Of a stretch of DNA of 64,000 bases, positions 2,957 to 57,190 are shown piece by piece. This stretch comes from Octopus vulgaris (Eukaryota), in NCBI GenBank assembly GCA_951406725.2, contig OX597839.1:22630001-22694000 (forward strand). The letters are read 5' to 3'. The notes below the pieces were generated by a model. That model had not been told where the DNA came from, made no database searches, and saw only the letters and a list, made by a program, of their open reading frames with translations. The position numbers and the translations under genes were made by a program. The stretch's first letter is position 1, and every line of letters begins with the position of its first letter.

Positions 2957-3307
2957 TTAAAGGCCTGTAGAATGTCAAAAAAAAAAACCCTTATGTGGCA
3001 AACAGGTGAAGGTTGCTGCCAGAGAAAGCAGCTGGCTGTAGAATCCTGTAAAATCTAAGCTCAAATAACTCCCCATCTAACCCATGCCAGCATAGAAAAA
3101 CATGTTAAGCAAAGGAATGAATATGAATCCGTACAGGTACACAGAACAACAAGAGAGACGGCTCTGTCAGGCATCAAATCAACCTTGTGCAGGTAAAAAA
3201 GATGGACATTTGCCTGGTACGGTCCTGTATCTTGCCACAACTCCCTGTTCAAAACTAAGGGAGGGCAAAAGAAGGGCAGATGGAGAAAATCCTAGTTTGA
3301 CAATATC

Positions 3308-3538
3308 TGTCTATTTACTACCCACAAGGGGCTACACACAGAGGGGACAAACAAGGACAGACAAACGGATTAAGTCGATTACATCGACCCCAGTGCGTAA
3401 CTGGTACTTAATTTATCGATCCCGAAAGGATCAAAGGCAAAGTCGACCTCGGCGGAATTTGAACTCAGAACGTAACGGCAGACGAAATACGGCTACGCAT
3501 TTCGCCCGGCGCGCTAACGTTTCTGCCAGCTCGCCGCC
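3308..3538 (-). mobile_element. SINE family B, full length
   Basis: Minus strand starts ggcggcgagctggcagaaacgttagc; B-box-like gagttcaaattcc; central gcctttNatcctttcggg.tcgataaattaagtacc; 15-bp TSD tagtttgacaatatc (3293-3307 / 3539-3553). Confidence 0.9.
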
Positions 3539-3744
3539 TAGTTTGACAATATCAAGGACTTGACAGGTCACAACAGAGCGAACCTGCTATGCGTGACAGA
3601 GAACAGCAACCAGTGGTGATGGCTGAATGTGGAAGCATCTAGAATGGCAATCAGATGACTGGCAGCACCAATTAATGGCACTAGAAGATGATGATGATGA
3701 TGGTAGGTAGGAGTGTGTGAGCTTATGTGGCAGAGGAAAACTAA

Positions 3745-16607: not shown

Positions 16608-16945
16608 ACAGTTCTATATTTAAGAGATGAGGAATTATGTACATTATTTACATTTGATGGATATTTGTCCTCACATAGTGTAGTGGTTAAGAGCGCGGGC
16701 TACTAACCCCAAAATTCCGAGTTCGATTCCAAGCAGTGGCCTGAATAATAATAATAATGATAATAATAATAATAATAATAACAACAACAACATTGAAAAA
16801 TACGTTAGGAATTAGAACCCAGGTTTGAAATTTCTCCAAGACACCTGATGAAGGCTGCAGGGTATATCAGCCGAAACGTGTTAACAACAAACAAGATGAG
16901 GACAAATATCCACCAAATGTAAATAAAGTAAATAATGAACATATC
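16608..16945 (+). mobile_element. tRNA-headed SINE with Penelope-like tail, hammerhead motif and inverted tail copy at its 5' side
   Basis: A-box tagtgtagtgg 16676-16686, B-box gttcgattcc 16721-16730; (AAT)n; CTGATGA-A-ggctg..cagcc-GAAAC 16845-16877; 16644-16673 is the reverse complement of 16897-16926. Confidence 0.7.
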
Positions 16946-36751: not shown

Positions 36752-36861
36752 ATGCTTACAGCACCTAGGTTTCCCAAGCGGTCACCCATCTAAGTACTCA
36801 TTAAAGCTCGACGTTACTTAACTTCAGTGATCAGACAAGAACTCATGCACTCAATGTGATA
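36752..36861 (-). pseudogene. 5S rRNA-derived sequence (first ~10 nt missing), fused to the SINE-A 3' tail (36693-36744)
   Basis: Minus: tgatcactgaagttaagtaacgtcgagc..agtacttagatgggtgaccgcttgggaaacctaggtgctgtaagc matches metazoan 5S, including box A and box C, with many substitutions. Confidence 0.88.
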
Positions 36862-37060
36862 GAAAATCCAGGTTTCACAATGGTAGCTTTATCTACTTCA
36901 AGTTTCCCCATTCCAGAAGAGAATTATTTCTGGCTCTCTTGAAGTTTCTAAATTCTTATGCTGTCAACAATACATACATATGTATACATACATACATACA
37001 TACACACACACATACATACATACATACACACATACATACATACATACATACATACATACA

Positions 37061-37119: not shown

Positions 37120-37505
37120 ACAAAGAATACTGGTCGAATATTTCCATCGAAACTTCTGCCAGATGTAAACATGACAAGCTGGATATTGTTGTTTGGGGAC
37201 AGAAGGGCTAAGGTATGTACCACCATAGAGGTTAGCTACCCTGCAGATATAGATATCTCTTTGAAAATCAAAGGAAAAGAGGATGTCCATGGACAACTGC
37301 TTCGAAACCTCCAGCTTCTATATCCAGACTATGAATTCATATTTATATGAATAATAATTGGAGCATTAGTAAATGCTTAAAGGAGAATCTGGATAAACTG
37401 GGATTTTCAGAAAGAGAAACTGACCGGCTGATTCATACATTACAAGTGCAATCTGTGAGTGGAACAGTAAAAATATGCAAGCCTTTTCTCAAGTTCCAAA
37501 TGTGA
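37120..37505 (+). mobile_element. Degenerate restriction-like-endonuclease (RLE) domain of an R4/Dong-type non-LTR retrotransposon
   Basis: Broken frame HDKLDIVVW..KVCTTIEVSYPADIDISLKIKGKEDVHGQLL..IIIGAL resembles PD-(D/E)xK RLE motif HNxPDIV..IEVSxP..K; frameshifts and a stop. Confidence 0.7.
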
Positions 37506-40060: not shown

Positions 40061-40298
40061 ACGGGAAGCTTTATGAAAATAGACAAAAGACGAAGGCAGG
40101 TTTACGGAAATAAACAAAAGACGAAGGCAGGTGGAATACAAACAAACAATGGTATTAGTATGGCGCTCAGGAATATAAATAAAACAAGTCTTTAACGTTT
40201 CGAGCCTACGCTCTTCAACAGAAAGATACACAGAGAAGAAACACAGAAAGAAGGAAAGAAAAAAAAATGTGTGCAGAGACTAGCGAATCAACATGACG
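40061..40298 (-). mobile_element. (TA)n-embedded Penelope-like LTR fragment with a minimal hammerhead (40189-40226)
   Basis: Minus: tcttt-CTGTTGA-a-gagc-gtag-gctc-GAAA-c-GTT-aaaga; (TA)n on both sides; related fragment at 52125-52215. Confidence 0.65.
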
Positions 40299-45744: not shown

Positions 45745-46073
45745 TCTTCTCTAGGCACAAGGCTCCAAATTTTTTTTTTGTGTGGTGATGGTGGTGGTGG
45801 TGGGGGTTTAAGTACCAGTATGCAACTGGTACTTAATTTATCAACCCTGAAAGGATGAAAGGCAAAGTCGACCTCAGCAGAATTTGAACTTAGAACATAA
45901 TGACAGATGAAATACCTATTTCATTACTACCCACAAGGGGCTAAACACAGAGGGGACAAACAAGGATTGACAAACGGATTAAGCCGATTACATCGACCCC
46001 AGTGCGTAACTGGTACTTAATTTATCAACCCTGAAAGGATGAAAGGCAAAGTCGACCTCGGCGGAATTTGAAC
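45745..46073 (-). mobile_element. SINE family B fragments (two partial copies)
   Basis: ctgaaaggatgaaaggcaaagtcgacctc occurs twice. Confidence 0.85.
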
Positions 46074-51073: not shown

Positions 51074-51492
51074 GGCGGCGAGCTGGCAGAAACGTTAGCA
51101 CGCCGGGCGAAATGCGTAGCCGTATTTTGTCTGCCGCTACGTTCTGAGTTCAAATTCCGCCGAGGTCGACTTTGCCTTTCATCCTTTCGGGGTCGATAAA
51201 TTAAGTACCAGTTACGCACTGGGGTCGATCTAATCGACTTAATACCTATGTCTGTCCTTGTTTGTCCCCTCTGTGTTTAGCCCCTTGTGGGTAATAAAGA
51301 AATAGGTATTTCGTCTGCCGTTACGTTCTGAGTTCAAATTCCGCCGAGGTCGACTTTGCCTTTCATCCTTTCGGGGTCGATAAATTAAGTACCAGTTACG
51401 CACTGGGGTCGATCTAATCGACTTAATACCTATGTCTGTCCTTGTTTGTCCCCTCTGTGTTTAGCCCCTTGTGGGCAGTAAAGAAACAGGTA
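51074..51492 (+). mobile_element. SINE family B with 184-bp tandem duplication of its body
   Basis: gtattt(t/c)gtctgccg restarts at 51122 and 51306. Confidence 0.92.
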
Positions 51493-51569
51493 TTAAAAGG
51501 GTTGAATATTGTTGCAGTTCCAGAAGAATTGGGTTCTTCTCCAAGCTCTCCTCACTCTGAGTTTCTCAC

Positions 51570-51884
51570 CTGGTCTCACTCCCACATCTGCCCTATTCAC
51601 CAGATTTAGCACCTGTGGACTTCCATCTCCCCCCACCCCAAGAGGAAAATGCAACTCAGAGGTCACCGTTTTGGTATCATTGTCGAGATTCAGAGCAAAT
51701 AGTAGAAGATCCTTGACTTGATAATGGGAAACGACTTCCAGGCCAGACTCCAAAATGGCCGGAATGTTGGGACTGGTGTAGTGCTGAGCAAGGTGACTAT
51801 TTTTGAAGGAGATGAGGTTAAAACTCAGGCAAATAAGTTGTTTTTTATTAAACATAAACAAGTCTGGAAACCTTTTGATACCAC

Positions 51885-51890
<6 letters not shown>
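51570..51890 (+). mobile_element. Mariner transposase C-terminal remnant with right TIR
   Basis: PHLPYSPDLAPVDF from 51582 (mariner YSPDLAPxD motif), then MQLRGHRF..NDFQA..WDWC..QGDYF with frameshifts; ends cttttgataccacctca|TA. Confidence 0.85.
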
Positions 51891-51928
<38 letters not shown>

Positions 51929-52346
51929 ATGTGTTTCTGGGGGTAGCAAGATCGACGAAAAAAAAATGCTGTGAGCAGTAGAAATGATGTTTTGGCAACT
52001 GCATTCTGCTGTCTTTTACTGTTTTTACTACATAATATTGAAGTCTTACAAATGCAGACTGACATCAGCTTTTTGGAGTCTATTTCATCACGCACACACA
52101 CATTATATGCATACATACATATATATAAGGTTAATCCAAACGGGAAAACAGAAAAAACAACAACACGTGGAACAATTACAGTATTATTATTATTAGGCGC
52201 TCAGGAAAATGGAAGAAGAGTCAGTGGAGGGACTCTACTACCTCATGTGTTCTTAACATTTAAATCCACATCTTTGTCTATATATCTACCTTCTCTATAA
52301 TGTTGCCACTTGATTTGAAAATTTTTGTATTAATGGAAAACCTCTA

Positions 52347-52439
52347 TAATTGGCTGATGAGTACTCAGCATTTTAAAACTGTTGTAATACTTACAACATT
52401 TAATAAAATGATGTAGTACGAAACGATCGTACTAAATTA
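52347..52439 (+). ncRNA. Hammerhead ribozyme (type I) with intact core and 59-nt stem II
   Basis: taattgg-CTGATGA(52354-52360)-gtact...agtac-GAAA(52420-52423)-cgatc-GTA(52429-52431)-ctaaatta. Confidence 0.85.
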
Positions 52440-52571
52440 CCGGAGTCATTCTTGTTGCTTATTTTGATTATAGTCACCCCACGGATTTTTATGGATAACA
52501 CCATACAAAATTCTGGTGCATCTAAATTAAGTACCATATTCATTTGAATTTGAATCTAAATTTTTGCTGAA

Positions 52572-52610
<39 letters not shown>

Positions 52611-52691
52611 GTATACATGCATACACACACACGCACACACACACACACACACACAAATATATTCTCTTATTCTTTTACTTGCTTCAGTTGT

Positions 52692-56739: not shown

Positions 56740-56964
56740 GAGCTGAAAGAAACGTTAACACGCCGTGCAAAATGCGTAACCGTATTTCGTCTGCCACTAC
56801 GTTCTGAGTTCAAACTCCGCCGAGGTCGACTTTGCCTTTCATCCTTTCGGGGTCGATAAATTAAGTACCAGTTATGCACTGGGGTTGATATAATCGACTT
56901 AATCCATTTGTCTGTCCTTGTTTGTCCCCTCTGTGTTTAGCCCCTTGTGGGTAGTAAAGAAATA
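56740..56964 (+). mobile_element. SINE family B
   Basis: Matches 51074-51305. Confidence 0.88.
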
Positions 56965-57190
56965 TATATGTGTGTGCATGTGAGACTGTGTCTGTATGTG
57001 TTTTATATCAAAACATGCTGCTGTTTACATCATACGCTTTTATATTAACTTAGCAGTCTGATACACAGAGATCAATATATTAACTGATATAATTAATTTT
57101 GAAACAACAGAAAAGTACAAAATATCCTATTGTTTTTTTTGCTTGTTTTTTATCGTTATTTTTTTTTTAGTTTTGTTTAAGTTGACATAC

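Follow-up and report, generated by a model that had tools for sequence, protein, structure and literature searches.

The window, by which we mean the whole 64-kb stretch of Octopus vulgaris DNA that was analysed, is AT-rich and abounds in microsatellites (132 tandem-repeat rows) and interspersed repeats. On its plus strand, a complete type I hammerhead motif extends from 52347 to 52439, with all core bases, three helices and a GUA cleavage site at 52431. The 5' strand of stem I (TAATTGG, 52347–52353) leads into the catalytic core nucleotides C3 to A9 (CTGATGA, or CUGAUGA in RNA; 52354–52360), which are followed by a 59-nt stem II (52361–52419) made up of three helical segments. From its basal pair G10.1-C11.1 (52361/52419), stem II runs through GTACT/AGTAC, a 2-bp CA/TG step, CATTTTA/TAAAATG and TGTTGTAA/TTACAACA to a 3-nt loop. 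Beyond the core bases G12, A13 and A14 (GAA, 52420–52422), stem III (ACGATCGT, 52423–52430) can form 2 bp closed by a GAUC loop in the monomer, or an 8-nt palindromic helix in a dimer. H17 is the A of the GUA, and the hammerhead consensus predicts a cut between 52431 and 52432. The 3' strand of stem I (52432–52439) contains one G-U pair, a bulged A at 52436 and, in this copy, a U at 52433. The initial annotation had recognised the core nucleotides, the G10.1-C11.1 pair, stems I and II and the GUA at 52431 from the letters alone, and the sequence bears out every one of these positions. The conserved elements CUGANGA, GAAA and UH are present in type I order, and helices I, II and III are able to pair around the core in an active fold of −14.0 kcal/mol, which is not the preferred one.

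A descriptor scan of both strands returned one strict type I hammerhead in the 64-kb window, at 52354–52431. In 100 dinucleotide shuffles, loose matches arose at 0.10 per window and strict matches at 0.01, the strict filter having been set with this match already known. The folding z-score was −3.2, with 1 of 200 shuffles folding equally well, and the minimum free energy (MFE) structure scored there is not the hammerhead fold. At the gathering score, Rfam returned no hammerhead family at the locus, and none was among the 29 matches with E ≤ 10 around the site, likely because of the long stem II. The only gathering-level match in the window was a 5S rRNA-like sequence on the minus strand at 36753–36868 (47 bits), which has several broken pairs and is probably a pseudogene or a 5S-derived repeat. 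Another motif that resembles a hammerhead, in this case the minimal Penelope type, lies on the plus strand at 16837–16885, with an extra A after A9 and a 5-bp stem II. Its stem I follows directly after GAAAC, so that the cleavage triplet is missing, and the motif is likely dead.

What the initial annotation overlooked is that the locus is one copy of a high-copy repeat. Positions 52130–52572 were found in 20 of the 24 public sequencing runs listed (9 studies, 4 organism labels). Contigs from four runs, one per organism label, were aligned to 51930–52573 at 80% likeness, with letters 52102–52131 skipped as repeat. The numbers aligning to the two repeats described below were 25, 99, 2036 and 943 per run; thousands of distinct contigs point to a very common repeat, with the proviso that summed contig depth is not copy number and that contigs show presence, not absence. 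On the left, the block is bounded by a (CA)/(TA) microsatellite (52084–52128). Contig cover starts in the bin from 52128, and the left flank (51930–52127) had none in the four runs. The ~430-bp block between (TA)n tracts that had been proposed earlier does lie between microsatellites, but it measures ~445 bp (52128–52573) and consists of two repeats joined at 52218/52219.

The first, which we call repeat A, is a minus-strand fragment (52128–52218) of a different family from the second, repeat B. Contigs from two runs (X8 and X19) are identical over 52132–52218 and then run on into other letters, and contig depth collapses at the A/B junction (52216–52237). In other copies, repeat A goes on to a minus-strand core half, GAAACGT. 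It is likely a minimal-hammerhead Penelope-type repeat that was cut off before its own ribozyme, and the absence of any difference over the 87 nt of 52132–52218 in contigs from two organism labels suggests that its subfamily is young. A relative of repeat A on the minus strand at 40160–40225 has a minimal hammerhead-like fold with a GAGC/GCTC stem II, GAAACGT and an altered 5' core.

Repeat B (52219–52573, plus strand) is 355 bp long, carries the ribozyme and ends on (TA)n, and contigs covered it in all four runs. Upstream of 52219, eight contigs from two runs (two from X8, six from X6) share letters other than those in the window, and repeat B is therefore a 5'-truncated piece of something longer. 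Its loose 3' ends were (TA)n or (CA)n in three runs (X19, X6 and X9), and in the window it is followed by a (TA)n and then (CA)n microsatellite (52574–52655 in the tandem-repeat listing), likely the insertion target. Joints within contigs comprised five between opposite strands and two partial back-joints (52378 to 52258 and 52549 to 52437, one contig each), all at single-contig depth. A single contig of a run labelled 'RNA?' switches strand at 52429, 2 nt away from the predicted cut; such labels are guesses and not proof of expression, and we do not take this joint as evidence of cleavage.

Several other repeats lie in the window. A common SINE-like repeat of ~230 bp has copies at 3302–3539, 45815–46073, 51080–51494 and 56740–56969, and is in partial tandem just left of the ribozyme locus. 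Next to it, a broken transposase remnant on the plus strand (51495–51887) had no Pfam match and retains a YSPDLAP motif, which we take to be mariner-type. A retroelement fragment at 37126–37347 (plus strand) had 51 homologs, and among the eight looked up, one was named, from Octopus bimaculoides at 52% identity; the fragment resembles the restriction-like endonuclease end of a non-LTR retrotransposon.

Our reading, to which we give a probability of roughly two in three, is that the ribozyme belongs to a high-copy repeat, here truncated, which likely corresponds to the 3' end of a Penelope-like retrotransposon that targets (TA)n, and that this copy is likely a relic. Taken by itself, the assignment of repeat B to some Penelope-like element is quite probable. 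In favour are the microsatellite at its 3' end, the letters that copies share beyond the truncation, and the opposite-strand and partial back-joints. Inverted joints arise with ordinary LINEs too; repeat B combines a terminal hammerhead with truncated, inverted and partial-tandem copies, traits that are not exclusive to Penelope-like elements. Inverted truncated and partial-tandem copies have been described for that group (Craig et al., 2021; PMC8557442).

By anatomy, the closest relatives are in the Hydra clade, and we place repeat B there tentatively, at a little less than even odds. Hydra-clade elements, which are known in Octopus bimaculoides, insert into (TA)n and have a canonical type I hammerhead close to their 3' ends (Craig et al., 2021; PMC8557442, File S2). 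The same combination is found here, with the hammerhead cut site 142 nt from the (TA)n 3' end of repeat B. In the Hydra rows of that source, stem III has 8–10 nt with self-complementary ends and a TGG/CCA stem I is frequent (9 of 26 rows have atgg with ccat or ccgt), as it is in the repeat B family, where TGG/CCA is the majority form; 14 of the 26 have U.U at 10.1-11.1. Unlike in the Hydra clade, where stem II with its loop spans at most ~26 nt in these 26 rows, stem II here has 59 nt, over twice the length reached in any of them. A possible remnant of an ORF C-terminus, SQWRDSTTSCVLNI followed by a stop, was read by translation at 52219–52260 on the plus strand. This frame, ~110 nt upstream of the ribozyme, reads SQWRDSTTSC, 10 codons whose spacing, by eye, bears a weak resemblance to the Hydra C-terminal N-x-R-x-E-x4-C-x-H (PMC8557442, figure S7). 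Elements of that clade have a C-terminal endonuclease with CxxC and CxH motifs.

Hammerheads of metazoan Penelope-like elements have been described as scattered in truncated elements, with a palindromic helix III and low activity in vitro (Cervera and de la Pena, 2014; PMC4209133). The motif at 52347–52439 resembles them in its occurrence in scattered single truncated copies, its G10.1-C11.1 pair, its palindromic helix III and the low in vitro activity to be expected of it. It differs in that this copy has no extra base between A9 and 10.1, in that helix III is present, and in a helix II far above the 6–8 bp described there.

Searches for coding sequence and for named relatives were largely negative. 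Pfam returned nothing in 12 frames around repeat B, and of the window's 189 candidate frames, the 95 examined gave no match to a reverse transcriptase (RT) or endonuclease family; two matches below the cut-off (EST1 and beta-defensin) were dismissed as weak. A homolog search for the Penelope frame came back empty, a weak result since the query spans the A/B junction. None of this linked repeat B to the telomerase-like RT and GIY-YIG endonuclease frame of Penelope-like elements; the copy is truncated, and the upstream sequence of other copies could be read for 30 letters at loose ends. Four 11–12-letter words of repeat B did not occur in the consensus files for Naiad, Chlamys and Hydra, in a search that can miss a word running across a line end. 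Identity with Naiad, considered because Naiad_Ovul is flagged 'HHR_half_core', was rejected, as none of the four words occurs in the octopus Naiad consensus and the 3' ends are unlike by eye. Identity with Hydra-1_oBim was likewise rejected, the published octopus Hydra-1 hammerhead sequence being different. A metagenome scan gave 16 matches, which by eye lacked stems I and III and had no BLAST similarity beyond the pattern; viral scans gave 0 and 10 matches, none of the 10 having an upstream core half within 100 nt; and a scan of prokaryote genomes found no relatives. We found no description of the repeat B family in the literature searched; Repbase, Dfam, subscription papers and figure-only supplements lay outside that search and may have it.

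Could repeat B instead be a non-autonomous non-LTR retrozyme? In that case a ~350-nt unit would be copied in tandem, cut to monomers by the hammerhead and circularised, with a Penelope-like RT supplied in trans. The 355-bp length, the low GC content and the 2-bp stem III with its tetraloop resemble mussel and coral retrozymes, and metazoan non-LTR retrozymes share with repeat B a type I motif, a ~350-nt unit and occurrence in a mollusc (Cervera and de la Pena, 2020; PMC7229834). About half of the sequence words are present in small runs that were guessed to be RNA. However, no joint between the end and the start of repeat B was listed in the four runs, the only back-joints being the two single contigs above, and what other copies have upstream of 52219 is unlike its 3' end. 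Repeat B moreover ends on microsatellites, has an unusually long stem II compared with those retrozymes, and is present in the window as one copy with no tandem; head-to-tail units of 150–450 bp were found neither in the contigs of the four runs nor in the window. A longer monomer is possible, but we regard a retrozyme as unlikely and retain the 3' end of a (TA)n-targeting Penelope-like element as the preferred identity.

Whether the copy in the window is functional is a separate question. Its structure was modelled by nearest-neighbour folding, which ignores Mg2+, tertiary contacts and co-transcriptional folding and was run with no known active hammerhead as calibration. The model predicts a competing inactive hairpin at 52415–52433, in which 52415–52421 pairs with 52427–52433, so that G12, A13 and the cleavage triplet are all paired up. 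In four sequence contexts this hairpin had P 0.98–0.99, with the active fold 7–10 kcal/mol above the ensemble. The closing pairs of stem II had P 0.01. The hairpin wins in the model because of the U at 52433: when this U was swapped for C, the probability of the hairpin fell from 0.99 to ~0.05, that of stem II rose to 0.93–0.95, and the gap to the active fold narrowed from 7.0 to 3.9 kcal/mol. The expectation in the initial annotation that the motif is likely still able to self-cleave thus sits badly with a model that puts 99% of monomers in the inactive hairpin. Its suggestion of a dimer-competent stem III holds for the palindrome duplex itself, at −10.0 kcal/mol (stem II alone is −15.9 kcal/mol), but a double hammerhead, at −42.8 kcal/mol, loses both to two misfolded monomers (2 × −23.6, or −47.2 kcal/mol) and to the best dimer (−57.4 kcal/mol). 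The hammerheads of invertebrate retrozymes, with 2-bp stem III and tetraloop, reportedly cleave efficiently (PMC7229834), so that a dimer may be unnecessary. A perfect core does not make a live ribozyme. The modelling indicates that this copy probably misfolds and cuts itself poorly, and it is probably a decayed relic weakened by a single change in stem I; that it cleaves well alone seems doubtful to us.

A more favourable view would be that this copy is still active in a plus-strand host transcript and cuts co-transcriptionally, before the inactive hairpin forms. The core is perfect, and folding of successive prefixes kept stem II intact up to 52431, which makes a brief co-transcriptional window for cleavage possible. 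Near-identical contigs, with 1–2 differences over 94–134 nt, were also present in a run guessed to be RNA; they imply that the subfamily of the ribozyme repeat is young. On the other hand, the equilibrium model prefers the off-fold by ~7 kcal/mol, and stem I cannot be completed until the competing strand has already been synthesised. None of the runs is recorded as RNA, the contigs carry neither strand nor ends, and no host exon was identified in the window. An active copy in a host transcript is accordingly improbable in our judgement, and a relic of a Penelope-like element remains the reading we prefer.

The table of variants among copies of the family covers the 40 best-supported of 64 rows and is unphased, and each subfamily change counts as one event. 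Within those 40 rows, no variant fell on C3 to A9, G12 to A14, A15.1, C15.2, G16.2, U16.1 or A17. The three CpGs of the motif have listed changes at their tolerant positions, 52419 (C11.1; 29–71%), 52425 (8–31%) and 52428 (8–42%), but not at the essential ones, 52420 (G12), 52424 (C15.2) and 52429 (G16.2). G52425A and C52428T have similar fractions and stand together in one loose end, where they yield a second perfect palindrome. Pairs are kept or improved by 52363G, 52417C, 52418G, 52419T and 52433C, the last accounting for 79–88% of depth in three of the runs and for 25% in the remaining one. The fractions of 52361T (0, 0.20, 0.16 and 0.31 across the four runs) track those of 52418G (0, 0.18, 0.21 and 0.35), and a loose end from 10 contigs ends AGCGT before GAAA. 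Together these likely mark a subfamily in which the basal pair of stem II is U.U. Pairs are broken by 52350A, 52361T, 52372C and 52382C unless unseen partners change too. In distal stem II, the variants include no compensatory pair, and the AGCGT loose end differs there. Five contigs of 9–16% divergence extend across the whole of stem II, or almost the whole, with 0–1 gaps, which makes the 59-nt length a family trait.

This pattern, drawn from sequence comparison, supports selection on the ribozyme in the source elements. It also agrees with the earlier view of a genuine hammerhead whose stem III is self-complementary. That the motif arose by chance in AT-rich palindromic DNA, an idea to which the missing Rfam hammerhead match and the discrepancy between MFE structure and hammerhead fold might lend some colour, is already largely refuted by the rarity of strict matches in shuffled windows and by family variants that spare the core and keep the pairs, and we hold it to be extremely improbable.

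If the source element is Penelope-like, its RT-endonuclease frame would end ~110 nt ahead of the ribozyme, and the element itself ~140 nt beyond it. The ribozyme would cut the element RNA after the GUA at 52431, trimming tandem or read-through transcripts. Perhaps the element protein would assist, by analogy with an anole element in which the cut required the element protein, insertion in vitro could do without the cut, and no RNA-seq read ends resulted from it (PMC11167929). Many 5'-truncated tails like the copy in the window would then arise by target-primed copying into TA runs.

Core halves set far apart have precedents in the same source as the Hydra rows. They are separated by 53 nt in PLE-X1 of Selaginella (PLE-X1_sMoe) and by 35–50 nt in eight Naiads flagged 'HHR_half_core' (PMC8557442). 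In PLE-X1_sMoe, however, the spacer is mostly loop, whereas that of repeat B is mostly helix, and the octopus Naiads differ from repeat B in their 3' ends. By eye, the last 130 nt of Naiad_Obim and Naiad_Ovul (PMC8557442 supplement) contain GAAAC upstream of CTGATGA together with complementary segments that could pair as stems I and III with their order swapped. These 3' ends may be non-circularly permuted hammerheads of the kind described in PMC10085705, although the elements are said to be without canonical ribozymes.

Penelope-like elements of 190 families make up 6.83% of the O. vulgaris genome, according to a report whose main text does not mention ribozymes (PMC13282606), and 235 Rfam hammerhead-1 matches have been reported from the giant squid (PMC6962438). 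Hammerheads of Penelope-like elements are well known, so that one more copy is ordinary; the useful part is the family, which occurs in very large numbers under four organism labels, goes unseen by Rfam and retains its 59-nt second arm in diverged copies. The long-stem-II ribozyme is a new variant of a known retroelement ribozyme. More speculatively, and with little confidence, we suggest an abundant cephalopod family that is still transcribed, in which the 59-nt stem II would be a functional arm that docks the element protein or acts as a gate, switching the RNA from cutting fold to off-hairpin or back; long-armed hammerheads of Penelope-like elements, some of them scored 'half core', would then have been overlooked as a class by Rfam and published descriptors. 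The natural variants of the family, with U or C at 52433, two palindromes, and either G-C or U.U as the basal pair of stem II, are well suited to the question of what the ribozyme does for these elements.
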